Of a stretch of DNA of 64,000 bases, positions 4,788-48,679 are shown one piece after another. Under the pieces are notes generated by a model. It searched no databases and had not been told where the DNA came from. It worked only from the letters and a program-made list of their open reading frames with translations. The translations under genes were made by a program, and so were the position numbers. Source of the stretch: Escherichia coli (GTDB lineage Bacteria > Pseudomonadota > Gammaproteobacteria > Enterobacterales > Enterobacteriaceae). How positions within the stretch are numbered: position 1 is the stretch's first letter; each line of letters begins with the position of its first letter. The stretch lies in the NCBI RefSeq assembly GCF_965641715.1, contig NZ_OZ282453.1, one strand, 5' to 3'.

Positions 4788-5387
4788 TCAGAATTTATAA
4801 CCAACACCCACGATGAACCCGTCAGTGCGCCAGTCACCACTGCCGGAGCCTTCATAAGCGACATCAATGGCCACGGATTCGGTCGGGTTAAACTGCACGC
4901 CAGCTCCCCACGCCAGAGACGTGTTGCTGTGGCGACCGTCATCACTTCCGGTCAGCACATCGTGCTTTTTCCCCTTGTTGTCAGTTACGCGGAGATAATC
5001 CCCGGAGAAAGTCGACACACGGCTGTAAGCCACACCCGCCATCGCATACGCGCTGAACCATTCATTCACGCGCACAGACGGCCCCGCCATTACGCTGAAC
5101 CAGCGGTTACGAACGGAATCTTCATGCCAGCGGGTATCGCTGTAACGGGTAATCTGGCGATTCTTGTCTCCTGCATAGCTGAACGACGTCACCATCCCCA
5201 GTGTGTCCGTAAACTCATAACGGTATTTCACGTTAATCCCGTTCAGATCATCACTGCCGGGAACGTTCGTCCGGGCATGAAGATACCCCGCGCTCAGCGT
5301 GGACTGATGTTCAGACGCCCATGCAGGCGCACCGGATACGGCCAGACAAATGGCTGCGGACAAAATGGCGGCATAAAGTTTACGCAT
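4788..5387 (-). CDS. lom: Outer membrane protein Lom (Ail/Lom family)
   Basis: Signal peptide [24 protein letters not shown], beta-barrel-like sequence ending GYKF; position after J. Confidence 0.9.
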
Positions 5388-5409
5388 AATTACCTCTCGC
5401 TTTTCTGCA

Positions 5410-5436
5410 ATAAAAAAGGCGTCATTTCTGACGCCC
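5410..5436 (-). terminator. Rho-independent terminator downstream of J
   Basis: Minus strand GGCGTCAGAAATGACGCC hairpin followed by TTTTTTATT, then the RBS of lom. Confidence 0.55.
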
Positions 5437-5453
5437 GTTCTGGGTTATAAAAT

Positions 5454-8855
<3,402 letters not shown>

Positions 8856-19934: not shown

Positions 19935-19954
<20 letters not shown>
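18635..19954 (-). CDS. C: Head maturation protease / scaffold C (probable GTG start, VTAELRNLPHIASMAF)
   Basis: Lambda gpC-like (S49/ClpP family); overlaps the end of B as in lambda. Confidence 0.9.
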
Positions 19955-23635
<3,681 letters not shown>

Positions 23636-23661
<26 letters not shown>

Positions 23662-24181
23662 TCAGCAACCCCGGTATCAGTTCATCCAGCGCGGCTGCTT
23701 TGTTCATGGCTTTGATGATATCCCGTTTCAGGAAATCAACATGTCGGTTTTCCAGTTCCGGAAAACGCCGCTGCACCGACAGGGGGATCCCGTCGAGAAT
23801 ACTGGCAATTTCACCTGCGATCCGCGACAGCACGAAAGTACAGAATGCGGTTTCCACCACTTCAGCTGAGTCTCTGGCATTCTTCAGTTCCTGTGCGTCG
23901 GCCTGCGCACGCGTAAGTCGATGGCGTTCGTACTCAATAGTCCCTGGCTGGAGATCTGCCTCGCTGGCCTGGCGCAGTTCTTCAACCTCCCGGCGCAGCT
24001 TTTCGTTCTCAATTTCAGCATCCCTTTCGGCATACCATTTTATAACGGCGGCAGAGTCATAAAGCACCTCATTACCCTTGCCACCGCCTCGCAGAACGGG
24101 CATTCCCTGTTCCTGCCAGTTCTGAATGGTACGGATACTCGCACCGAAAATGTCAGCCAGCTGCTTTTTGTTGACTTCCAT
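23636..24181 (-). CDS. Nu1: Terminase small subunit Nu1
   Basis: 181 aa starting MEVNKKQLADIFGASIRTIQNWQEQGMPV, lambda gpNu1-like. Confidence 0.95.
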
Positions 24182-24370
24182 TGTTCATTCCACGGCCAAA
24201 AACAGAGAAAGGAAACGACAAAGGCCCAAAAGTTCGTTTTCAGCACCTGTCGTTTCCTTTCTTTTCAGGGGGTATTTTAAATAAAAACATTAAGTTACGG
24301 CGAAGAAGAACGGAAACGCCTTAAACCGGAAAATTTTCATAAATAGCGAAAACCCGCGCGCCTGACGCCC
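24182..24370 (-). promoter_or_regulatory. cos site: cosB region plus a variant cosN (12-mer GGGCGTCAGGCG on minus strand, about 24359-24370)
   Basis: Minus-strand sequence upstream of Nu1 is near-identical to the recalled lambda left end (CGCGGGTTTTCGCTATTTATGAAAATTTTCCGGTTTAAGGCG...) with a different 12-nt cohesive-end region. Confidence 0.8.
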
Positions 24371-24887
24371 CGTAGCATGCTGGCTCACCGGAAAGGACCC
24401 GCAAACAACAGGAATTATCGATATCAAATATCAATGTCTCAACCTGGTGAGGTGACAAACGAATTAATGTAAATTTGAGAGCGTAGCAACCATTCGGACA
24501 CGCTAATCTCAGAGCCACCATGAGACACCTCATAATCAATAGTAATTCATCGAGCTCCAGCCAGTCGCTTGTTTCAGTAGAAAAGCCAACTGTATATACT
24601 GGTAATCCGATACACTTTCAACTAGTCGGAAATTTTTAAACACTTCACAAATTGTACGTGTAAAGAATAGCTTAAAGTAATATATAATCCGTTTCTTTGC
24701 CGATTGTCTTACGTCTGTCTCACAATCTTTAATATGGTGTATCTGCAATAACTTCTATCCATATGAGTAAGAAGATACAATCCACCATCAAATATCATTG
24801 ATTAACCACTTAATAATACATCCACGAAATCGTTTTATTTGTTAAACTACAGCAGTCTGTTATTGATAGACCGCTGTAACAAAAGTC

Positions 24888-25895
24888 TTAATTGGATGAA
24901 AAGTAAAGAGTTGTACTGGGGTATGCAAAATCTGCTTTGTGATTATGCACAATATCAACAATTCTCAGATAAACTTTTTGCTGAATGTCAAGCCACTCCT
25001 CCCAGTCCCTTGTATAAGTGAAACAATACACCATAATATTCAATGAGGAATCCCCAAACTCGTTAAAATAAACAAGCAACGTCTGTCTTTGATCTATACT
25101 CTCTTCATGCATAAGATAATTACGAATATCTTCCACAATGAGCGAAATTTTTTTAGAATCCTCATATCGTAAACCAATCGTTGTTTTTATTCTCCTATTA
25201 GTCATTCTACCAGGGTTTTCTAAAGAAATATCAGAAAATAATGAGTTTGGGATATACATTGGCCTGTTTTCAAAAGTAATTACCTTTGTCAATCTCCAGC
25301 CGATTTCAGCAACAACACCCTCGATATTTCTATCCGGTGAACGAATCCAATCACCAATGTTAAATGGACGATCAAAATATAGCATAACACCAGAGAAGAA
25401 ATTACTTAGAATATCTTTGCCAGCCATGCCAACAGCGATACCCCCAATCCCACCAAAGGCAAGCAACCCGGAAAAACTCATGCCAACTTGCTGGCCGAAA
25501 ACCAATAAAGATATCAATAAAACTATTATTTTTAGAACTTTTGAAATTACTCTTGAATCAGTTACATCACGCCCTTTACTTACTTGCCTTCTCTCTAAAT
25601 AATCAATAACAATAAATGCCTTTCGTATAAAAACAGTAACAATCAACAATATTGAAAGTATCCTTACCACTGTCCTGGAAAGATATTTTATGTGAAAACC
25701 ATCGATTAAAAAAGACAAGTAATCTCCGATCAAAATAATAATACACGACCAGAGAAGTAAACTTAACAAACATCCAATAACTATGTAGTTCTTCTTACTA
25801 AAGCGAACCATGTAAAAATTAACAACAAGCGCAACAATAGCCAACAGCATAAAAATTACGCCAAGTGAGTTATGAATAAAAACATCGCGAAACAT
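24888..25895 (-). CDS. MscS-family mechanosensitive channel-like membrane protein (AT-rich moron between lysis genes and cos)
   Basis: N-terminal TM helices, then the MscS core FGGIGGIAVGMAGKDILSNFFSGVMLYFDRPFNIGDWI...EGVVAEIGWRLTKV...IPNS; ATG at 25895 preceded by AGGTGA. Confidence 0.8.
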   Translation of the reverse strand: MFRDVFIHNSLGVIFMLLAIVALVVNFYMVRFSKKNYIVIGCLLSLLLWSCIIILIGDYLSFLIDGFHIKYLSRTVVRILSILLIVTVFIRKAFIVIDYLERRQVSKGRDVTDSRVISKVLKIIVLLISLLVFGQQVGMSFSGLLAFGGIGGIAVGMAGKDILSNFFSGVMLYFDRPFNIGDWIRSPDRNIEGVVAEIGWRLTKVITFENRPMYIPNSLFSDISLENPGRMTNRRIKTTIGLRYEDSKKISLIVEDIRNYLMHEESIDQRQTLLVYFNEFGDSSLNIMVYCFTYTRDWEEWLDIQQKVYLRIVDIVHNHKADFAYPSTTLYFSSN

Positions 25896-26412
25896 CAATA
25901 TCACCTATATATCAACTACATAGAAATACTACCACCCCCTTCACAAAAAAAACAAGCAAGTAAGCACATCTTTATTTGTAAAACAATTATACATTAGGCC
26001 AAATCGACGAAAACAATCATACATTCTCATTTTACAATAAAGAATTTCTAAAACAAAAAGATACTTATATAAAATCAGCAATACGGCGCTTTCAGGTTAT
26101 ATATGCTCCATACCCCTTTACGAAGGGGAAACCAATAAACCAATCTGATGACCTAGTCAACCAATGGATGCTCAATACGTTCACCATTTTTAGCAATTTC
26201 CACTCATACAGTCAGAAATTAAACAAGCTGTGATCATATTCATGGTTTATTCCTTTTAGTGATGAACCTTGCGCACAGGAATAACCAGCCAGAGAGGGTT
26301 AACCAGACCACTACCGGTTTTCCTCAAGACTCATCCTGAAAGGTTCTCTGTTCTGTATGCACTGTGCGAAGTGCAAAAAATAAGGCCGCAGAAGCGACCT
26401 TTTCCGATGCGT

Positions 26413-26967
26413 TTACAAACCAACACGCGCTTTCATCCAGCCATAGACAAAGGACTCGTTAGCCTCACGTTTCTCTGCCAGCGCCAGATAACGCTCCCCC
26501 TGTGTACAGTTCAGTGCTGTCAGCATCACCAGTTCGCCATCTTTACCGCGTTTTTCCAGGAATACACGTAGTGCGTTAATGGTTCGTGGGCCGATACACC
26601 CGTCTGTATCCATGTCCGGATACAGCATCCCCTTCTGGTTAAATACATTCAGCCAGCGCTGAAGCATCTTTGCCGCAACTGCCGGCCCCATGTTCACACC
26701 CGTGTCGCAAAGCTCTGCGGCAATGTCCGCAGACAGGTTTGCCACCTTGTCGAAATTCGGTCCGTACCAGTAGTCTGCCTCCAGAATTTCCAGCGCCTGC
26801 CCGCGGCTCAAATCACGCATATCGCCACGGTACCCATGTGACCGCGCCACTTTTTCAGTTATGCCCCACTTCGTTGCACCACCTGTATCGTCAGGGTGAC
26901 TGACGTAGCCCCCCTCTTTTCCCAGGATTTCATCAAAAACTTCATCTCTCGATTTCATATCAGCCAC
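26413..26967 (-). CDS. Endolysin, glycoside hydrolase family 108-like with peptidoglycan-binding domain
   Basis: N-terminal EGGYVSHPDDTGGATKWGIT motif typical of GH108; position in the lysis cassette. Confidence 0.7.
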   Translation of the reverse strand: MADMKSRDEVFDEILGKEGGYVSHPDDTGGATKWGITEKVARSHGYRGDMRDLSRGQALEILEADYWYGPNFDKVANLSADIAAELCDTGVNMGPAVAAKMLQRWLNVFNQKGMLYPDMDTDGCIGPRTINALRVFLEKRGKDGELVMLTALNCTQGERYLALAEKREANESFVYGWMKARVGL

Positions 26968-27238
26968 TCAGTAAGGCAAAAATTTTTGAAACATTACCGC
27001 GCGCACGAACAACCAGCACGCAGAACACCAGATTAATCATGACGACCAGCCAGTTACCGGGAAGGATTGTGCCGCAGAGAAAGGCAAGTGGCGGAAGTGC
27101 ATATACCGTCATCAGCAGCCAGGCCAGCAATGACACCAGCGGCTTATGTCTGGAATCACGACGACGATAAAAAAATAGCGTTGGCACGATAAACGAGCAC
27201 AACGCTACATTCAGCAATCCGGGAAGATTATTTGCCAT
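26960..27238 (-). CDS. Small membrane protein of the lysis cassette (holin/antiholin-like)
   Basis: About 92 aa, 2-3 predicted TM segments; translationally coupled between the holin and the endolysin. Confidence 0.5.
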   Translation of the reverse strand: MANNLPGLLNVALCSFIVPTLFFYRRRDSRHKPLVSLLAWLLMTVYALPPLAFLCGTILPGNWLVVMINLVFCVLVVRARGNVSKIFALLSG

Positions 27239-27617
27239 TACCACCACCTCCCCGTTGACGGGAGAACAGACCGGATACCAGCGATGTAATATCCTGCTGA
27301 TGGATGAATGACAGGACCTTTACTGAAACCACCGACACCAGTACTGCACACAACGCATCAACGGAAGCGCTGTCAAACCCAATACGCTCCGCCATATACC
27401 CCGCCACACCACGGGCCCCAAGAACACCAACAATAAAGGACACCAAGAAATGTGCAGCCACACGCCAGGCTGAAAGCGTCTGCGGCATTGTTGCCACAAA
27501 CAGCGCACCGGCAAAGGCACCAAACACAATCCCGAAATCCGTTCCGGTGAACAGCCCGAATACCGTCGCCCCGCCGAGCGCCGCGGCCGTACCGGAACCG
27601 GACAAGGGTTCAGACAT
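27228..27617 (-). CDS. Putative holin (start at MSEPLSGSG after AGGAG)
   Basis: 129 aa, Gly/Ala-rich TM helices, C-terminal charged tail; directly upstream of the endolysin. Confidence 0.6.
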   Translation of the reverse strand: MSEPLSGSGTAAALGGATVFGLFTGTDFGIVFGAFAGALFVATMPQTLSAWRVAAHFLVSFIVGVLGARGVAGYMAERIGFDSASVDALCAVLVSVVSVKVLSFIHQQDITSLVSGLFSRQRGGGGNGK

Positions 27618-27863
27618 ACCTTTTTTCTCCTGTAAATAAAAAAGAGCCACCAGCGGCCCACCAAAAAACACCCCGTCAAAGACACCTGCACCCACAGATG
27701 CCTTTTGTGTGGTGTTATTCAGATTTGCGCAGTAAAGGCCAGAGAACAACCATCACCATCGCTACCAGCACGCCATCAGCCAGAACCGACATCAGCCGTC
27801 CGGCAAAATCTACTGCCACTACCAGAAACAGCAGGATGGCAGCCAGCACAAGACGTGCACTTT

Positions 27864-28289
27864 TCACAGATACTGCTCCAGTGGTAACTGAAGCGCCTGT
27901 GCAATTTTCTTGAGCTGCGCTTCTTCATCCGGACTAATGCTATCCTGGTCAGCGATATCCAGACAGAGGCACAGTACGTCAACCGCCTCTGTTGTCCCTG
28001 CCACGTCAGCCAGCTGACGGAGGGCTTCAGCATTGGCAGAACGCGGGGATGCTTCATAACGGGCGCGGATATTGGCGCTCATCTGGGCAATCTCACCTGA
28101 GAACAGCGCAAAGGCCGGAAGTGCTGCAATGGTTTTCTCCAGCACTGCGATTTCTTTCGCGTCGCAGGTACCGTCAGCATATGCAATGGAATATGCGCCC
28201 CAGACGGTCGCTTCCACCGCATCGCGATTTTCCATCTTCTTCACCTCAACAATCGCCTTGCAGGTTTTCTTTTTGAAAATACCAAACAT
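27864..28289 (-). CDS. Hypothetical late-region protein (possible TerB-like fold)
   Basis: 141-aa ORF from MFGIFKKKTC with RBS; acidic helical protein; TerB assignment is a guess from composition only. Confidence 0.4.
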   Translation of the reverse strand: MFGIFKKKTCKAIVEVKKMENRDAVEATVWGAYSIAYADGTCDAKEIAVLEKTIAALPAFALFSGEIAQMSANIRARYEASPRSANAEALRQLADVAGTTEAVDVLCLCLDIADQDSISPDEEAQLKKIAQALQLPLEQYL

Positions 28290-28462
28290 CGTGACGTTTC
28301 CTTTTAGTGGGAGAGCCTCGCCCCGGGATGAGCAGCCCACAGAGAAAGTCACACCGACCATCCCGTAAGCTCCCCCCCCCTGAAAGGCTCTGTGGTTTTT
28401 GATGTGCACCGGACGTGGCGCGGATATGAAAAAAGCTCGCAGTAGCGGGCCTGGCTACAGGC

Positions 28463-28488
28463 AAAAAAATACCCGTCCGGAGACGGGC
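28463..28488 (-). terminator. Rho-independent terminator (minus strand)
   Basis: Minus strand GCCCGTCTCCGGACGGG hairpin followed by TATTTTTTT. Confidence 0.5.
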
Positions 28489-28533
28489 TAACACATTCAA
28501 CATGTAAGAGTGGAACAGCGTTTATTTTAAGTA

Positions 28534-28620
28534 TGGTCGCCGCCAGAATGAGTCGTCAGATTGCAACGCAATTCTGGCAAATCGCAGGCACCAAAACAGG
28601 CAACGACTCATTCTGGCAAC
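28534..28620. repeat. 15-bp perfect inverted repeat (GCCAGAATGAGTCGT / ACGACTCATTCTGGC) with nested alternative pairing and direct repeats, followed by a T-run
   Basis: Read directly: arms at 28534-28548 and 28595-28609; ATTCTGGCA and GGCAACGAC each occur twice. Confidence 0.7.
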
Positions 28621-28773
28621 GACTTTTTTCCAATAACGCAACTTCATGAACAAAAAAAAGAACAGCACTGTATCCGCTATTGCAGAATGGAGAACAATAA
28701 AAAACCTGAACTATTATTCAACTCGGAAAACCGCCAGTGCTGTAAAAGTCCGTCAGAAATAAAACAATGAAGT

Positions 28774-28850
28774 TGTGGAGAACAGGAATCGAACCTGCAT
28801 CGCCAACCCAGAAGGCTGCGGTAATAGCTACTATACGATACCTGAATAAA
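28774..28850 (-). tRNA. tRNA-like sequence, probably a 3' fragment or pseudo-tRNA (canonical T-arm, no acceptor stem found)
   Basis: Minus strand GCAGGTTCGATTCCTGT T-arm preceded by CCTTCTGG; no complementary 5' acceptor strand could be found by eye. Confidence 0.3.
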
Positions 28851-29358
28851 GAGCAGGCCTCCGTAACCACAATAATGATACTGATAACAGACCTTCAATA
28901 TGATTGAACGGAAGCCTACAATGAACCGCAAGACAGCGGGGAACACCGCTGTGAACATAAACTTGCTGTCTTCCGGGTCGGGAGTAATATTACCGATAAT
29001 TCATATGACATCAAAAACTAATTAGTTTTCAGATTTAAAAATATGTATAAATCTGTATCAATTACATACAGTTTATGTTATTCCATCCAGAATTCTGATT
29101 TCGCACAGGAGATTGCGTAAAAACTAACACAAATATAAACGATTTGGGAACACACTGATTCAGTTGTCGCAATAAATAACAGGAAACACTCCGGGAATAA
29201 CAGATCGCAAGACTTACATCAGCAGGAGTTTTTGCAACATTTAACGTTAATTGTATCGTTGATAGAAAATCTATGACGCAATATGGTGAACTAACAGAGC
29301 CTGACGAATATCCCAATTACGCCGAGCTAATAGCGCTGCCAGCTAAACTTGCATGGAA

Positions 29359-29435
29359 TGGTCCGCCACCGGGTGCTCGAACCTCGCACAATCAACTTAG
29401 AAGGCTGATGCTCTATCCAGATGAGCTGGTGGCGG
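29359..29435 (-). tRNA. tRNA-Arg (anticodon UCU)-like, phage-encoded; T-stem imperfect
   Basis: Acceptor stem CCGCCAC/GTGGCGG, D-arm GCTC-ATCTGGATA-GAGC, anticodon loop CTTCTAA, 3' ACCA; two mismatches in the T-stem. Confidence 0.55.
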
Positions 29436-29437
29436 AA

Positions 29438-29513
29438 TGGTGGCCCTTGCTGGATTTGAACCAGCGACCTGGCGATTATGAGTCGCTCGCTCTAACCACT
29501 GAGCTAAAGGGCC
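29438..29513 (-). tRNA. ileZ: tRNA-Ile2 (anticodon CAU, ileX/ileZ-like), phage-encoded
   Basis: Minus strand GGCCCTTTAGCTCAGTGGTTAGAGCGAGCGACTCATAATCGCCAGGTCGCTGGTTCAAATCCAGCAAGGGCCACCA is near-identical to recalled E. coli tRNA-Ile2. Confidence 0.85.
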
Positions 29514-29553
29514 GGGCGCAGGATAATAACGGTACGTAACTAATTCTGCAAGT

Positions 29554-30612
29554 TCATCCGTTCTGACTGACTAAATCCTGTACTTCCCTGACCGTCTGCT
29601 CAAAACGCTCAGTCTCCAGCTCAACACCAATCACACGACGTCCCTGCGCCATCGCTGCTTTGACTGTCGAACCTGACCCCATGAAGAAATCTGCAACCAG
29701 GTCTCCCGGACGGCTGCTTGCGCTGATTATCTGCTGCAACATTTCTGCCGGTTTTTCGCACGGGTGCTTCCCGGGATAGTACTGCACCGGTTTATGCGTC
29801 CACACATCGGTGTACGGCACCTGCACAGTCACACCGAAATACCGCCGCAAATTTTTATATTCACTCAGCAGTTCCGTATACTGCCGGTTCAGTTCACTGT
29901 ATGTGCTGACCAGTTGGTAATGTGGCTTTTCCAGTTCTCCGCACTGGTGCTTCTCTTCTGCCACTCGGGCAAACAGTGCCTGTAATTTCAGATAATCGCT
30001 TTCATTCGGTAGCTGCCACTGACTGGCACTGAACCAGTGCGACACCATGTTTTTCTTTCCTGTAGCATCCACAATCTGTTTTGCCGTAATCCCCAGGGCC
30101 GCACGCGCATCACAAAAGTAAGAAATCAGCGGGGCCATCACATGCTGTTTCAGAGCCCTGCCCTTTGCCGCATAGCCATCATTTTTTAGCTGATATGGCC
30201 CCTGATAATGTCCGGCAAACAGAATGCGCTCTGTTGCCGGAAAATACGCCCGCAGGCTTTCCTTGTTGCACCCGTTCCAACGTCCGGACGGCTTCGCCCA
30301 GATGATATGGTTAAGCACGTTGAAACGTTCACGCATCATGATCTCAATATCAGATGCCAGGCGATGTCCACAGAACAGGTAAAGGCTTCCGGCAGGTTTC
30401 AACACCCGCCAGAACTGGGCCAGACAGTGGTCCAGCCACTTAAGGTAACCTTCGTCCCCTTTCCACTGATTGTCCCAGCCGTTGGGTTTCACCTTGAAGT
30501 ACGGCGGATCGGTAACAATCAGGTCAATGGAATCATCAGGCAGGGACTGAATAAAATGCAGGCAATCAGCGTTGATCAAATCAACACTGTTTATTTTTAC
30601 AGTATTTTTCAT
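29554..30612 (-). CDS. Orphan DNA N6-adenine methyltransferase (DPPY motif)
   Basis: IDLIVTDPPYF catalytic motif and C-terminal FFMGSGST AdoMet motif; no adjacent restriction enzyme gene. Confidence 0.85.
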   Translation of the reverse strand: MKNTVKINSVDLINADCLHFIQSLPDDSIDLIVTDPPYFKVKPNGWDNQWKGDEGYLKWLDHCLAQFWRVLKPAGSLYLFCGHRLASDIEIMMRERFNVLNHIIWAKPSGRWNGCNKESLRAYFPATERILFAGHYQGPYQLKNDGYAAKGRALKQHVMAPLISYFCDARAALGITAKQIVDATGKKNMVSHWFSASQWQLPNESDYLKLQALFARVAEEKHQCGELEKPHYQLVSTYSELNRQYTELLSEYKNLRRYFGVTVQVPYTDVWTHKPVQYYPGKHPCEKPAEMLQQIISASSRPGDLVADFFMGSGSTVKAAMAQGRRVIGVELETERFEQTVREVQDLVSQNG

Positions 30613-43445: not shown

Positions 43446-46400
43446 TCACACGCTGCGCCTTCGAGAATATTCATTTAATCGCTGATAACGAACATCTTGC
43501 TCCAGTTGTGGAGCAGCTTGAACAATTTGAAGCAAGCATTGCCCCAACTCTCGAGGCCCCCAGTGTTGTTCGGCAATCACGGCATTCAGCAGGGATAGAG
43601 CGTCCGCAGGATATCGGCTGCAAATATCTGATTCTAGCAAAAGGCGAACGTCGTAGCTAAGGTGTTCGAGCGGTTGCAGCCAGTCCTGCACCACTGCCAA
43701 AGCCGCCGGAAATTCACCTCGGGCAGCAATCACCATACGAGTCAACGATTCGGATATGCGTGGGGTGGCCAAGTTGCGGGACTTTGGCCAAACCTGTTGC
43801 CAAAATGGCTGGACACGATTTTTCCAATACTCCTCGCGCTGATCGCCCGCACCTTCAAGTGCCTGGTATAACGCCTGCGCGGCTACCTCCAGACCTTCTT
43901 GTGGAAGAGCACTAATTGCCGTTCGGAACTCCTCCACGGTATATCCCTCGGTAGGGCCCAGAGCTGCATAAGTCAGGAAAATAGCGAATTGCTGCCGGTG
44001 CTCGCCAAGATCAGAATAGTGATTGGCGCTCTCCAAAAAATCTGACTTGAAAGCTATCAGCAACGGTTCATACAGGCGTGGCGACCAGAGGAAGCCTTCC
44101 CACACAGCTTTTGCTTCGACGGGATTACTCCAAGCAAACAAGGGCAATAGATACTGTTCGGTCCAAGGTCGATCTACGCGAAAAAATGCGATCAGCCGCG
44201 ACCCCAGCAACACCCGACCATGGCGGAATAGCTCTATCTGTACATTACACAATTTGGTGAAAAGTGTTTTCAATTCAACAGGAAGCAAATCATTGTCATT
44301 CGGGTTCTGTTTGAACCATAGGGTGATCAGTGATTGCGTGACATGCCCAATGGGATGATTGATCGCCGTAGAAACAGGATCATAGGTCTCAATTCCGTTT
44401 CGAATGGTGCTAGACTCTGGGCTTGTTTCTATCATCAGAACCCGACGACAAAGGGCCAGTAGAATCTCCTCGTGGCAGAGGATGGTCTTCGAAGCCTCCT
44501 CCATCCACCAAGTGACAGCGTGGGAAATCTCCTGAAGTACTGCGTCAGGCATGTCAAGCACCAACGGTGCGGCGTACCGCCACGAACGCAAAATCATCCC
44601 TGGTTCAGCCCAAGTCTGCAGAGCTTCACGCCACCGACCAACAGGCCACACATCATCTTGTGATAGTTTACGTAACGCATACAGACTGTGAAAAAAGCGC
44701 GTACGGCAAACATCACTCCAAGTGTCCTCATAGAAAGGCAGTCTTTCTGGCATAGGCTTTGCGAGCCATTGCACTAATTCCTGCCACTTACGGGGCGCAA
44801 TGTCGACATCTATACTCTCCTCGAAGCCTGGATCACCGGTTCCGCTCATCCAGTGAGAGAATTCATCACGCTCGTTGGTTGCCAGTTGCCATTTTGGGTA
44901 TGCTGTGGATATTTCCGTCAAACGTGTAGCCGCAGACTCTCCCAAAACAAGGCCCGCTCCCCTGAGCTTCTCTAGACACAACCAGACGGAATGAGCCACC
45001 AAATAATGCCACCTGTCTGCTTCCAAATTATCCTCGTACATCTCGCGCGGAGGCCCTGCCAAGATAGCAGTTTCCAGACGCTCTTGTGCAATTCCTGTCA
45101 GATGTCGTCCCTGCAAAACAAACAGTCTGAATACCTCTCGCCGAGTATCCGTGGCCCACAACCACCATGAACCGTCCTCTAACAACCAATTAACCCACCG
45201 CTCAGGTGGTATGCAGTTGTCTTGGCTTGCGGCAAACAGTGCCAGACGTTTGAAGGTGGGATATGGCAACTCAAACCAATTCTGAGCAATGCGCGAGGCC
45301 TGATCGCTGTCTTTGGCTCGAACGGCTAACCATGAATCCCGAAGTAATTCAATCAGGCTCACCCAATCGCGGAACCCCCGGTTCTGCCAGTGCGGAGTGA
45401 TGGACGGCAAATCCCAATGCGAGCGGTCGTGACGATCGTCGGACTCTCCCAACTCCCGCAACAAGTCCAGTGCATCACGCAACAACTGCTGAAAATCTTC
45501 CAACAGGTATGGCAAGGACGATTTCCATGACTCGTCAGCAAGGTCGAACAGGGTTGAACGTACGTAATCAGCAGTCAGCACCAGCTCCCAATCCACCAAT
45601 TGCTTGATTCGCAAGGGTTCATCAGTGCTGCTCGAATCGTCTTCACTATAGCGAAACGGCCGCCTCAACATAACCTTGGGAGAAAGCAACTCGCGTAACT
45701 CCAAGCGCAATGTAGTCGTCAAGCCTTCATTCTTTAAGCGGTTTTGCCAACGATACAAATCCAGGTTCTGCAATGGCGATTTCACACGACCACTAAGCAG
45801 AAGCCGCCATAAAGTAGACATAGGTGGACCAGGAATAGCCAGGGGGGAATGCAAGAGAATTTCATCTAACTCAGAAGTCTTACGCTCCCGCATCAGTGCT
45901 GCTAAGCGATCTAGTTCGCTCTCAATCAGAAACATCCAACGGTCGTGTATTTGTCCGCCGCGTTCAGCAATCCATATGATCAACCTAGGGTCGCCCAGAT
46001 AACGAACTAGCCAACGGGCTATATGGGACATTACGTCATCCCATTTGCTAGCACTGACACATCCAGAAACCAGCGACATCTGCGGGGCCAGCTCATAGGG
46101 CGCAGGACGCTGAACCAGACTGAATCGGAGTTTCGGGTCAATTTCGACATGCGGAGATACACAAAAGCGTGGCAGATCGCTGTATTTAAATCGTTCGTCC
46201 GAGAAAGCTTTCAATAACCAATCCAGCGGCGGTGCAGGATTGAGTTCCGCAAAGCGTTTTGCTGGTAAACCTGATTTATCTGACAAGGCCCACAACATCC
46301 GACCAACGAAATCGTCCTGACGAGTGCTGTCCTGCGGGCGGGCCAGAGCATGTTTGACGACTATAGCCTCTTTGCCCTGTATACCATCTCGATAAGTATC

Positions 46401-47273
46401 TGCCCAAGCGTGCAACGTTTGATGCAGCACTGAATGATCAGTGGAGCTCGCCGGTACGGTGTAAAGGATAGGAGTGACCCCTTTGGCCTCCCACTCGATG
46501 GCTTTCCGGTGCTCCTGCCCCGGCTCACACTCCCCCAGTGCCCATACTTGTGGTGTGACTTCACCGAGCCTCCGATCTGCTGCAAGCGCATCCATCATGT
46601 AGCGCAGTACCGGGTCGTTGATGCTGTAGCCAACGAAGCAGACCACATAGTTACGAAATAACTCACTCACAAAGCGAGCTGCCCAACGCTCAGTGAGATA
46701 AGCCAAGCCAAAGTCACCGCTGGTAACAACCAGACGATTCAGGGCAGTATCATCCGCCTTTTCCGGTAACAGCCCATGCAGGTATACAAGTCCATCCCAG
46801 CGGCTGTTTTTTGGAATTGGCAGCATCGGCGCTACATAGGCCTGAAAAGCCTGGCCTGTACGTTTAGCTGCCACATGAAAGAGACGGTCAAAGTTGGTAG
46901 TGACCAATCGAAGGGCACCCTCGCGGCTACGGGCTAAACGTAACAGCGCCGCCTGAGTATCAATAGCGCCCCTACGACGGAGCTTTGGCTTAAGGGCTTT
47001 TTCCAACGCGCGTCGGACGGCTATACGCTGCCCTGGTAAGCGCCGTTCCAGCAAATCTAATGTGCCGTCAAATTGCCCACGCTCGAAAACCTCACGCTCA
47101 ATTTCTGAAAGTGTTGTTCCGTTCCTCTGGTAAATTAGTTCTACCAACCCTTTGAAACCAGGTAAACCAGCAGGGTAGGAAATGCCTGCTCCACAGAAGA
47201 ACACAACGCGCCCTTCCTCGTGCGCCTGCAAAAGCTCATCAGGAATATCAGGGCCGTTGGTAATGAATTGCAT
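43446..47273 (-). CDS. SIR2-domain protein, 1275 aa (defence-associated sirtuin-like; N-terminal SIR2 NADase domain + large C-terminal region)
   Basis: N-terminal VVFFCGAGISYPAGLPGF (GAGIS), LVTTNFDRLF and LVYLHGLL motifs; no P-loop seen; AGGAGG RBS. Confidence 0.8.
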   Translation of the reverse strand: MQFITNGPDIPDELLQAHEEGRVVFFCGAGISYPAGLPGFKGLVELIYQRNGTTLSEIEREVFERGQFDGTLDLLERRLPGQRIAVRRALEKALKPKLRRRGAIDTQAALLRLARSREGALRLVTTNFDRLFHVAAKRTGQAFQAYVAPMLPIPKNSRWDGLVYLHGLLPEKADDTALNRLVVTSGDFGLAYLTERWAARFVSELFRNYVVCFVGYSINDPVLRYMMDALAADRRLGEVTPQVWALGECEPGQEHRKAIEWEAKGVTPILYTVPASSTDHSVLHQTLHAWADTYRDGIQGKEAIVVKHALARPQDSTRQDDFVGRMLWALSDKSGLPAKRFAELNPAPPLDWLLKAFSDERFKYSDLPRFCVSPHVEIDPKLRFSLVQRPAPYELAPQMSLVSGCVSASKWDDVMSHIARWLVRYLGDPRLIIWIAERGGQIHDRWMFLIESELDRLAALMRERKTSELDEILLHSPLAIPGPPMSTLWRLLLSGRVKSPLQNLDLYRWQNRLKNEGLTTTLRLELRELLSPKVMLRRPFRYSEDDSSSTDEPLRIKQLVDWELVLTADYVRSTLFDLADESWKSSLPYLLEDFQQLLRDALDLLRELGESDDRHDRSHWDLPSITPHWQNRGFRDWVSLIELLRDSWLAVRAKDSDQASRIAQNWFELPYPTFKRLALFAASQDNCIPPERWVNWLLEDGSWWLWATDTRREVFRLFVLQGRHLTGIAQERLETAILAGPPREMYEDNLEADRWHYLVAHSVWLCLEKLRGAGLVLGESAATRLTEISTAYPKWQLATNERDEFSHWMSGTGDPGFEESIDVDIAPRKWQELVQWLAKPMPERLPFYEDTWSDVCRTRFFHSLYALRKLSQDDVWPVGRWREALQTWAEPGMILRSWRYAAPLVLDMPDAVLQEISHAVTWWMEEASKTILCHEEILLALCRRVLMIETSPESSTIRNGIETYDPVSTAINHPIGHVTQSLITLWFKQNPNDNDLLPVELKTLFTKLCNVQIELFRHGRVLLGSRLIAFFRVDRPWTEQYLLPLFAWSNPVEAKAVWEGFLWSPRLYEPLLIAFKSDFLESANHYSDLGEHRQQFAIFLTYAALGPTEGYTVEEFRTAISALPQEGLEVAAQALYQALEGAGDQREEYWKNRVQPFWQQVWPKSRNLATPRISESLTRMVIAARGEFPAALAVVQDWLQPLEHLSYDVRLLLESDICSRYPADALSLLNAVIAEQHWGPRELGQCLLQIVQAAPQLEQDVRYQRLNEYSRRRSV

Positions 47274-47455: not shown

Positions 47456-48679
47456 TCATTTCGAGCCTGAACGAGTACAAGTAACAATCGATTCAACTCT
47501 CTCCCACCATGCCTGGTAGGCTTTACGCTGTTCTTCTAGATAATCACTCTTGTCATAAACTTGCCATACACCTGGCAGTTTATGACCGAGCATTATTTCA
47601 GCAATATGAGGCGCAGTAAGATCAGAAAAGTTTGTTCGTGCTGTTCGTCTCAAATCATGAAGAGACCAATGAGGAAATTGATACCCCAAACGCCGCCATG
47701 CGTACTGCATTAAATTGTAAGGCAGCGACTGCAATGATGTCCGACCAACTGGTTCCCTGCTTCCTTCCTTAGTAAAAAGCATATCGGAACCGTTGTTCAT
47801 AGAGATAACGTATTTTATAAGCTCTTCAACCGGTTCAATAATGGGCCGCTTTAGCGGTTTGCCTGTTATATCCCCTGTCTTATGTCGTTCTGGTGGTACA
47901 GTCCATATTTTATTAATGAAATCAAAATCGTCCACCTTGGCAGTAATTAGCTCTGAACTACGGCAACCAAAATGCAGCAATAGTTTAATGAAGGCCCGGT
48001 ATTTAGGAACCATTCGAGAACCATCGATCGCAGCATAAAGGATTTTAATTTCATCATGTGTCAGAAACCGTTTCTTCTGACCTTTACGGATATCCATATC
48101 TTTACCCGTGATATCCGACAGCGGGCGAGTTTCAATGAGCTTTCTCTTATACGCCCAGACATGGGCCTGCTTTGCGTTAATTAGCAATCGGTCTGCTATT
48201 GCTGGAGTCTTAGTGCTAAGAGGCTCCAGGACTTCTAACCAATCATGCAATGTAGCTGCATCGTGAGGGATATTCCCGATTTTAGAGAACAGGTGCAGCT
48301 CAAACGAGCGGAGTATCTGTTCAGAACCTTTTTTATTTTTTACACAATATGCTTCATACCAAGCACGGATCACAGATTCTACCGTCATGGCTTCAGTAGC
48401 TTTACGTTTTTCTGCCAGCTTGACCAATCGTGGATTGCGGTTTGACTCGAGTTCACCACGAAGACGGATAACTTCTTCTCTGGCCTCTTTTAGTCCAGTT
48501 GCCGGGTAAGTTCCGATATCAAGACGCTCACCTTTCCCCGCCCACTGATAACGATATTGGAACACTACGCGACCTTTCGGTGATACTCTAACAGACAGAC
48601 CATCACGATCGGATTTAACCAAAACCTTATCACGTTCCTTTCCAACGACTGAACGCAACCACGCATCAGACAGCGCCAT
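47456..48679 (-). CDS. int: Tyrosine recombinase / phage integrase (P4-type)
   Basis: 407 aa; C-terminal catalytic region with HDLRRT and LGHKL...Y motifs; adjacent to host yjjG. Confidence 0.9.
   Translation of the reverse strand: MALSDAWLRSVVGKERDKVLVKSDRDGLSVRVSPKGRVVFQYRYQWAGKGERLDIGTYPATGLKEAREEVIRLRGELESNRNPRLVKLAEKRKATEAMTVESVIRAWYEAYCVKNKKGSEQILRSFELHLFSKIGNIPHDAATLHDWLEVLEPLSTKTPAIADRLLINAKQAHVWAYKRKLIETRPLSDITGKDMDIRKGQKKRFLTHDEIKILYAAIDGSRMVPKYRAFIKLLLHFGCRSSELITAKVDDFDFINKIWTVPPERHKTGDITGKPLKRPIIEPVEELIKYVISMNNGSDMLFTKEGSREPVGRTSLQSLPYNLMQYAWRRLGYQFPHWSLHDLRRTARTNFSDLTAPHIAEIMLGHKLPGVWQVYDKSDYLEEQRKAYQAWWERVESIVTCTRSGSK

Follow-up and report, generated by a model that had tools for sequence, protein, structure and literature searches.

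The closest described relative of the gene considered here is ynaI of Escherichia coli, whose product is a mechanosensitive channel of about 100 pS that opens near the MscL threshold and that, supplied from a plasmid, protects a strain lacking such channels against osmotic downshock, abundance being limiting (PMC3508906). YnaI conducts ions only and, once open, stays open down to low tension (PMC12344017), and native ynaI has the lowest expression among the mechanosensitive channel genes of E. coli (PMC12314656). By position, the closest described genes are bor of phage lambda, which occupies a slot downstream of the endolysin and upstream of cos and the terminase, and eltIIaAB of phage Rac-SA53, which encode the toxin LT-IIa and follow a lysis cassette of holin1, holin and GH108 endolysin. 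We describe here a YnaI-type channel gene at that same position, downstream of the same cassette as in Rac-SA53, in a lambdoid prophage within a 64,000-nucleotide stretch of E. coli DNA (contig NZ_OZ282453.1 of assembly GCF_965641715.1; hereafter the window, numbered from its first nucleotide). Unlike Bor, an outer-membrane lipoprotein, or LT-IIa, a secreted toxin, the cargo in the window is a polytopic inner-membrane channel. The gene is best described, from its sequence, as a paralogue or xenologue of ynaI, and we give about an even chance to the reading that it is a horizontally mobile one, a moron carrying a tension-gated ion valve that serves the lysogen. The gene in question is:

24888-25895, minus strand: YnaI-type MscS-family channel gene, 335 amino acids (open reading frame list, Pfam, match to YnaI in the PDB, RefSeq)

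The open reading frame (ORF) has a maximal extent of 24888-25904 from an in-frame GTG, which would add three amino acids, the likely start being the ATG at 25895, and RefSeq annotates an identical 335-amino-acid coding sequence in strain ETEC1730. It is the sole long ORF of the cos-to-endolysin interval; an open frame of 1 kb in DNA this rich in AT does not arise by chance, and it has strong database matches. All three MscS domains of Pfam were found above their curated cut-offs, namely MS_channel_1st (PF21088, E 8e-7, 29.4 bits against a cut-off of 23.1), MS_channel_2nd (PF00924, E 1e-19, 70.7 against 20.2) and MS_channel_3rd (PF21082, E 6e-18, 65.5 against 21), and the protein has the pore helix TM3 (the third transmembrane, TM, helix of the MscS type), the beta-domain and the alpha-beta C-terminal domain by which the MscS superfamily is recognized. 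The best match among solved structures was E. coli YnaI (6urt, E 1.5e-126 by phmmer, residues 1-333 against YnaI 1-334, 55% identity); E. coli MscS structures matched at E 1e-17 only. A preliminary description, made without database searches, had proposed a 335-amino-acid MscS-family gene with N-terminal TM helices between endolysin and cos and had listed the motifs FGGIGGIAVG, DRPFNIGDWI, IGWRLTKV and IPNS; the ORF, the Pfam matches and five hydrophobic segments agree with this, each motif is present in the translation, and the comparison with YnaI sharpens the identity to a full-length YnaI-type paralogue.

By hydropathy the five hydrophobic segments reproduce the YnaI layout, in which two extra helices precede the MscS-type TM1-TM3. 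An AlphaFold2 monomer model contained helices at residues 10-32, 35-67, 74-106, 111-136 and 141-175, and its best Foldseek matches were YnaI structures. The model was of moderate confidence (pLDDT 68), with values below 50 at 140-165 and 207-230, in the pore helix and beta-domain, which may be attributed to the modelling of a single subunit of an oligomeric channel, and it says little that the sequence match does not. Along the protein, identity to E. coli YnaI was uneven:

Two extra N-terminal helices: 20% identity
TM1-TM2: 29% identity
Pore helix TM3: 88% identity
Beta-domain: 84% identity
C-terminal domain: 65% identity

The prophage protein thus resembles E. coli YnaI (PDB 5Y4O, 6URT, 6ZYD, 9H95) in being full-length and collinear (335 versus 343 amino acids), with five TM helices and the pore kept, but is only 55% identical overall and 20-29% identical in the four sensor-paddle helices, and it is without the last approximately 9 C-terminal residues. 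The YnaI gate consists of hydrophobic L154/M158 and a ring of K161 after the G160 kink (PMC8137935). Residues I153, M157, G159 and K160 of the prophage protein align to this gate, with one conservative change of L to I, and the GGxGG..GMAxKD motif is near-invariant in 49 homologues, nine of its ten fixed residues being fully invariant. On every sequence-level test the protein is YnaI-type.

It is also an extra copy. Of 5426 complete E. coli genomes, 5416 have chromosomal ynaI, beside mppA and ynaJ; its match to the prophage gene has only 71% DNA identity and is confined to the gene's 3' 57%. The prophage channel segment was present in five of the 5426, all of them pig isolates (four Belgian enterotoxigenic E. 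coli (ETEC) strains and PEC422), and the one genome checked, ETEC1730, has both the prophage copy and its own chromosomal ynaI. The possibility that the gene is simply the host's own ynaI orthologue can be dismissed on account of its prophage location, the 55% protein identity, the presence of the host ynaI as well, and its placement in a separate clade (bootstrap 100/100). Unlike the E. coli gene, which lies in the order mppA-ynaI-ynaJ and has 43.6% GC (48.5% at third codon positions, GC3), the prophage gene belongs to a separate lineage and has 34.3% GC (GC3 31.5%), compared with 52.7% in the lysis cassette beside it; low GC relative to surrounding phage genes was also seen in four other prophage copies. 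The prophage carried by the five complete genomes is decaying, the genes for small terminase, portal, head decoration and tail fibre being pseudogenes and ISKox3 being inserted (ETEC1730 is our locus L001). This decaying ETEC-type prophage keeps the lysis and channel genes intact, and the copy in the window has full-length structural genes.

The prophage in the window has its late genes on the minus strand, and the features which frame the channel gene are as follows:

26413-27620, minus strand: lysis cassette of two holins and an endolysin, the travelling companion of the channel gene
27228-27620, minus strand: Phage_holin_8 (Pfam and PHROGs)
26960-27247, minus strand: Phage_holin_3_7 (Pfam and PHROGs)
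26413-26967, minus strand: GH108/PG_binding_3 endolysin (Pfam and PHROGs)
26230-26375, minus strand: remnant of an antirepressor gene, comprising upstream region, start codon and about four codons (ORF MNMITAC... from 26243)
24431-26229: AT-rich segment (32-36% GC), found in none of the other lambdoid prophages of E. coli that were compared
about 24440-24700, minus strand: frameshifted remnant of an 81-amino-acid cos-proximal phage ORF (79% DNA match, tblastn in two frames)
24370-24359, minus strand: cosN cohesive-end 12-mer GGGCGTCAGGCG, read from the sequence
23636-24181, minus strand: Nu1 small terminase gene (Pfam E 9e-101)
21736-23661, minus strand: large terminase
19935-21536, minus strand: portal

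The lysis and terminase genes have a GC content of 50-60%, compared with 31-38% over approximately 24500-26300. By megablast, thousands of E. coli cos regions resemble the window up to about 24430, where the similarity ends. Similarity to the antirepressor upstream region ends at 26230, the interval 26230-26375 being 85% identical to its counterpart in 872 E. coli genomes. In the O157:H7 prophage of TR01 the gene order is lysozyme, antirepressor, Rz, bor and terminase; the O157 Ant protein starts MNMMTV, and the window retains only MNMI... before AT-rich DNA begins. On the other side, the counterpart of the 81-amino-acid ORF is a hypothetical protein (WP_000122986.1) next to terS in E. coli AVS0969. 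A 70-amino-acid ORF at 24536-24748 was considered as a gene and rejected as a pseudogene, given an in-frame stop in the copy at the related locus L002 and its two-frame match to the known small phage ORF. These remnants of an antirepressor start, which marks the breakpoint, and of a cos-proximal ORF mean that the AT-rich segment replaced earlier content of the ant/Rz/bor type.

Sitting between conserved phage modules, absent from close relatives and unlike its phage neighbours in composition, the gene has the marks of a moron. The preliminary description had placed it at the lambda bor position, a known moron slot, and this stands, given the cosN at 24370-24359 and a Bor family gene in the same interval of a relative (L020); its further statement that about 500 bp of AT-rich non-coding DNA lies on each side holds for the composition, although the flanks contain a terminator, the antirepressor start and the frameshifted ORF remnant and so are not plainly non-coding. 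In relatives the slot holds LT-IIa, Bor with DUF1398 and IS21, or cytochrome b561. In lambda, bor is transcribed against the late operon. The channel gene differs from bor in running with the late operon, and the annotation of L020 agrees with the opposite direction for bor. The cos flanks of the window are 89-94% identical to lambda-type cos regions. As for cosN itself, the lambda 12-mer, GGGCGGCGACCT, differs from GGGCGTCAGGCG of the window at five of 12 positions, and the related locus L002 has GGGCGGTGACCT.

The protein search covered 5.8 billion proteins and returned thousands of YnaI homologues, of which only about 12 cluster representatives exceeded 57% identity. In a bootstrapped neighbour-joining tree P0001-P0006 formed one clade (100/100) and P0007, P0008, P0011 and P0021 another (90/100), both apart from Enterobacterales chromosomal YnaI. 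A single clade of all twelve close homologues was poorly supported (23/100) and was not accepted, and neither was a recent donor, the lineage being roughly equidistant (52-63%) from chromosomal YnaI of Escherichia, Salmonella, Citrobacter, Yersinia, Proteus, Providencia, Morganella and Serratia. Genomic contexts were read for members with readable contigs, the percentages being identity to the protein of the window:

P0002, 89% identity: GH108 endolysin, channel, cos
P0003 (Cronobacter sakazakii), 70%: holin_8, holin_3_7 fragment, channel, Terminase_6N; present too in an extensively deleted remnant
P0005 (Raoultella planticola), 65%: holin_8, holin_3_7, GH108, channel, ParB, Terminase_2
P0007, 61%: holin_8, holin_3_7, M15 endolysin, channel, cytochrome b561 (opposite strand), Nu1/A
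P0008 (Salmonella), 60%: adjoins icd, beside a prophage remnant
P0004, P0010, P0013 and P0021, 57-67%: without lysis genes nearby; neighbours are O-methyltransferase, a gtrABC-like cluster, MgtC, or YfdX/resolvase

In all five prophage contexts the channel gene is downstream of a Phage_holin_8/Phage_holin_3_7 cassette and co-oriented with the late genes (the holin pair is upstream in loci L008 and L015, and holin_8 with the holin_3_7 fragment in L006/L023), and these contexts include three terminase (packaging) types and two endolysin types. By the contexts read, the lineage has kept its link with a single type of two-holin cassette through exchanges of endolysin and terminase. DNA identity between prophages is 70-73% for the channel gene and 73-80% for the lysis genes, and the similar divergence fits one old acquisition followed by co-descent with the holin module. 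Strain PT109 shares the prophage backbone and the integration site but has an EssD/lysozyme/Rz module and no channel gene, a comparison which indicates that lysis module and channel were swapped as one block.

Such linkage could be because the gene is a lytic-cycle accessory, in which a late-made channel would act with the two holins, its ion leak under envelope stress timing holin triggering, or would help a cassette without a spanin. Its place directly downstream of the holin pair in late orientation across all these exchanges would fit this, as would the tracking of lysis gene divergence by channel gene divergence, but descent from a single acquisition accounts for the linkage, and intact copies occur away from lysis genes. 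The distribution also speaks against it: the lysis cassette is present in 297 E. coli genomes and only five of them have the channel gene, and Rac-SA53, phiP27 and phiSTEC1575-Stx2k have the same cassette without it. The preliminary description had counted conservation at this position as a defined lysis accessory in related phages against its own reading; conservation of position was indeed found, in prophages of other genera, and the part about a lysis accessory does not survive the count of five in 297. A channel of about 100 pS that opens near lytic tension (PMC3508906) would be negligible beside holin lesions, and an inner-membrane channel would not be able to breach the outer membrane. 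We consider this explanation improbable.

The argument from a missing spanin deserves separate treatment, the channel gene occupying the position of ant, Rz and bor in O157-type prophages. As the preliminary description had reported, no Rz/Rz1 ORF of at least 60 amino acids lies between endolysin and channel gene, and on the coding strand of 25896-26412 there was in addition no ORF of that size of any kind and no spanin-like ORF of at least 20 amino acids. Across the whole window there was no Rz homologue by tblastn with four Rz proteins and no lipoprotein-type ORF by a crude lipobox filter. A 17-amino-acid ORF, MNMITAC..., with a lipobox-like ITAC was set aside as the truncated antirepressor start, and the channel protein itself was rejected as a spanin, being a polytopic channel and neither of the Rz/Rz1 type nor unimolecular. 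Rac-SA53, phiP27 and phiSTEC1575-Stx2k likewise have no annotated Rz or other spanin; because these channel-less relatives of the cassette also lack one, the missing spanin cannot be blamed on the channel gene, and with this cassette type the outer membrane may perhaps be disrupted in another way. A conserved ORF of 62-63 amino acids (...GTGSDTGAFLL[IV]GCVS...) was seen between endolysin and channel gene in L008 (Raoultella, 7664-7855) and L015 (approximately 7644-7832). It has a lipobox-like LL[IV]GC and no proper signal peptide; the window lacks it, and downstream of the phiP27 (L030) endolysin it is apparently frameshifted.

A stronger version of the lytic explanation would make the channel a working part of a lysis module without spanin, its tension-gated ion leak, produced in the lysogen or late in infection, coupling envelope stress to holin triggering or to phage exclusion. 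This is kept in view by the lasting adjacency to the two holins through swaps of the modules on either side, the constant late co-orientation and the failure to find a spanin in the prophage, and we hold it to be quite unlikely. If it were true, a mechanosensitive channel would have been taken over by phages to serve as a sensor in the phage life cycle.

Signals around the gene were examined for the bearing they might have on expression in the lysogen:

26372-26401, minus strand: intrinsic terminator just after the endolysin stop, with an 8-bp GC-rich stem, a loop of 4 and a U-run
25980-26025, minus strand: two 16-nt direct repeats AATGTAT(G/A)ATTGTTTT, 30 bp apart (repeat search)
25926-25955, minus strand: predicted sigma-70-like promoter, -35-like TTGTTT (25955-25950), 18-nt spacer and -10-like TAGTAT (25931-25926), then an AGGTGA Shine-Dalgarno sequence
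24848-24878, minus strand: hairpin 10 nt past the channel stop codon, with an 11-bp stem and a 9-nt loop, no U-tract

A -10-like TAnnnT hexamer is found 36-40 nt upstream of the start in eight of ten lineage members, non-phage contexts included, while the surrounding sequence has diverged. The proximal direct repeat contains TATAAT (25991-25986) and one copy is conserved in L002; the repeats are possibly a second promoter or sites for a regulator. The terminator folds with a free energy (dG) of -17.8 kcal/mol (z -4.3, none of 200 shuffles being as good) and belongs to the lysis module, as similarity to the channel-less L020 reaches 26376 and so covers the stem-loop at 26401-26382. The hairpin downstream of the channel gene (dG -17.7, z -2.6) is kept in L002 and is possibly a weak terminator or an RNA-stability element. 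An Rfam scan of 24100-29600 found tRNAs only, and no RNA family in the flanks of the channel gene.

Comparison of the channel gene in the window with that of L002 gave a synonymous divergence (dS) of 0.45 and a ratio of nonsynonymous to synonymous divergence (dN/dS) of 0.11, indicating purifying selection; this pair was used as more distant pairs are saturated at synonymous sites. The ratio is comparable with the values for the endolysin, 0.06-0.08, and for holin_8, 0.05-0.15. The ORF was intact in every copy seen, at 57-89% protein identity, with the pore motifs invariant. This bears on the view that the gene is a hitch-hiker, picked up by illegitimate recombination, kept by linkage to the lysis module and silenced in its AT-rich context, with no current function. 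Rarity, the AT-rich and unameliorated composition, the debris of earlier slot occupants on both flanks and the decay of the prophage in the ETEC strains are what such a history would leave behind. It would not account for constraint at a dN/dS of about 0.1 with an intact frame throughout the lineage, nor for the observation that the neighbouring small ORF and antirepressor gene decayed and the channel gene did not. This view is therefore also unlikely to be correct.

The reading of the gene as mobile cargo for the lysogen draws on the same constraint and on where else the gene occurs. It is intact in the heavily deleted Cronobacter remnant and beside icd with a prophage remnant in Salmonella, and loci L012, L025 and L028 have it without phage genes around. 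YnaI-like genes from outside the prophage lineage were found on 75 plasmids, 57 of them predicted to be conjugative, where a lysis role is impossible, and the YnaI family is mobile beyond phages. YnaI-like genes with 62% identity over residues 63-331 occur on 56 Enterobacter plasmid records, those listed being 290-366 kb, and on a few Salmonella plasmids. Together the promoter-like element carried along with the gene, the intact copies in remnants and non-phage contexts, the plasmid-borne genes and the purifying selection argue for a role on the side of the host. The preliminary description had suggested either lysogen osmotic fitness or a membrane effector for defence or superinfection exclusion; the former is the better supported by these four lines.

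If the prophage protein behaves as YnaI does, it would form a heptameric low-conductance ion valve opening at near-lytic membrane tension. It would be transcribed in the lysogen from its own promoter-like element, and Q-antiterminated late transcription would also read through it, as it has the same direction as the late operon. The dose of YnaI-type channel would then be raised, or its regulation and tension response altered, and the lysogen might better survive osmotic downshift or envelope stress, for example on the route from gut to water, with the phage gaining indirectly via host fitness.

Several observations weigh against a service to the lysogen. AT-rich segments are typical targets of H-NS silencing, and the gene may be silent in lysogens; the predicted promoter matches the consensus weakly (4/6 and 3/6) and was not called by a consensus scan. 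The gene runs with the late operon in each of the five prophage contexts and must therefore be transcribed late in lytic growth, and that it has remained beside one lysis cassette, with exchanges to either side, could point to a function coupled to lysis. As the strains already own MscL, MscS and YnaI, one more channel may bring little. The gene is also rare, with five occurrences in 5426 complete E. coli genomes and four contigs in IMG/VR.

A different role in the lysogen would be superinfection exclusion or abortive infection, the channel opening on membrane perturbation by an incoming phage and depolarizing the cell or blocking DNA entry in the manner of lambda RexB. The likeness to RexB of the RexAB exclusion system, also a prophage-encoded ion channel for the lysogen inner membrane, is a mechanistic analogy only, and differs in that the channel gene is without a RexA-like partner and lies outside the immunity region; it stands alone with remnants on both sides. 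A membrane ion channel carried in a moron slot might nevertheless be suited to such a task, and strongly diverged sensor helices over a conserved pore could reflect a changed trigger, although a variable N-terminus with a conserved core is found among ordinary chromosomal YnaI as well. Defence genes do occur in the prophage neighbourhood: a 1275-amino-acid gene at 43446-47273 (minus strand), annotated as the defence sirtuin Dsr1 in near-identical genomes, adjoins the prophage integrase (47456-48679), and a TIR-domain reverse transcriptase is present among the tail genes of related prophages. The channel protein itself matched no family in PADLOC-DB 2.0 at E <= 0.01, no precedent was found in the literature searched, and the suggestion of a defence effector is left without support. 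We would be surprised if exclusion proved to be the function.

Other features of the prophage and its relatives were noted. The region of PT109 around dsr1, an integrase, opgB and rsmC is 99.2% identical to positions 40000-64000 of the window. A TerB-family gene (27864-28409) and a DUF3927 gene (together window 27715-28409, minus strand) separate the tRNA genes from the holins, in the position occupied by stx2e in phiP27 and by toxin genes in relatives, which makes this a second cargo position of the prophage. There are two tRNA genes (29441-29513 and 29362-29435, minus strand) and a weak partial tRNA-like match at 28781-28839, and this region upstream of the TerB gene is a second AT-rich stretch, with 32-37% GC at 28850-29300. 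Among the channel-bearing loci, AB5-type toxin genes lie just upstream of a holin cassette in L006 (Cronobacter, 71-1189; LT-II-like A and B subunits) and L008 (Raoultella, 5111-5836; a pertussis-S1/Scabin-like subunit), those of Cronobacter adjoining a separate complete lysis cassette approximately 6 kb upstream of the channel gene. An O-methyltransferase gene (Dimerisation and Methyltransf_2 domains) is 7 kb from the channel gene in L008 (234-1265) and, in inverted orientation, 650 bp from it in L012 (4524-5555), where no phage genes are present (66% and 76% DNA identity). L012 is either a decayed prophage that has left two cargo genes or a locus of the source type.

Genes of this kind are scarce among catalogued viruses. 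PHROGs has no family for the channel protein, and tblastn against 50,697 GenBank phage records returned no YnaI-type gene, only weak core matches, mostly to mis-binned bacterial records. Channel-bearing contigs in IMG/VR are limited to the four mentioned, and BFVD gave a single distant MscS match from a giant virus. MscS-like genes of Aureococcus anophagefferens virus and Microcystis phage MaAM05 are likewise virus-encoded members of the superfamily, but these, from a giant algal virus and a jumbo cyanophage, have 15-22% identity in the core only and none is YnaI-type or lambdoid. Nothing relevant to mechanosensitive channels encoded by phages or prophages came from full-text literature searches.

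A YnaI lineage resident on temperate phages thus appears to be undescribed, with the protein family and the type of slot already familiar and the function of the gene likely conventional. Mechanosensitive channels are viewed as core housekeeping safety valves and are almost absent from catalogued phage gene families, and the present findings show a lineage of YnaI that travels with temperate phages and has lasted on them under purifying selection. This amounts to a natural gain-of-copy experiment for the poorly understood YnaI class, and paralogues with a conserved pore and diverged sensor paddles would be useful in structure-function studies of tension sensing. Were the channel to act in lysis or exclusion, it would represent a new type of phage membrane effector. 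If it is expressed in lysogens, osmotic or envelope-stress tolerance would become one more trait that lysogenic conversion confers, in this case on pig-associated enterotoxigenic E. coli.

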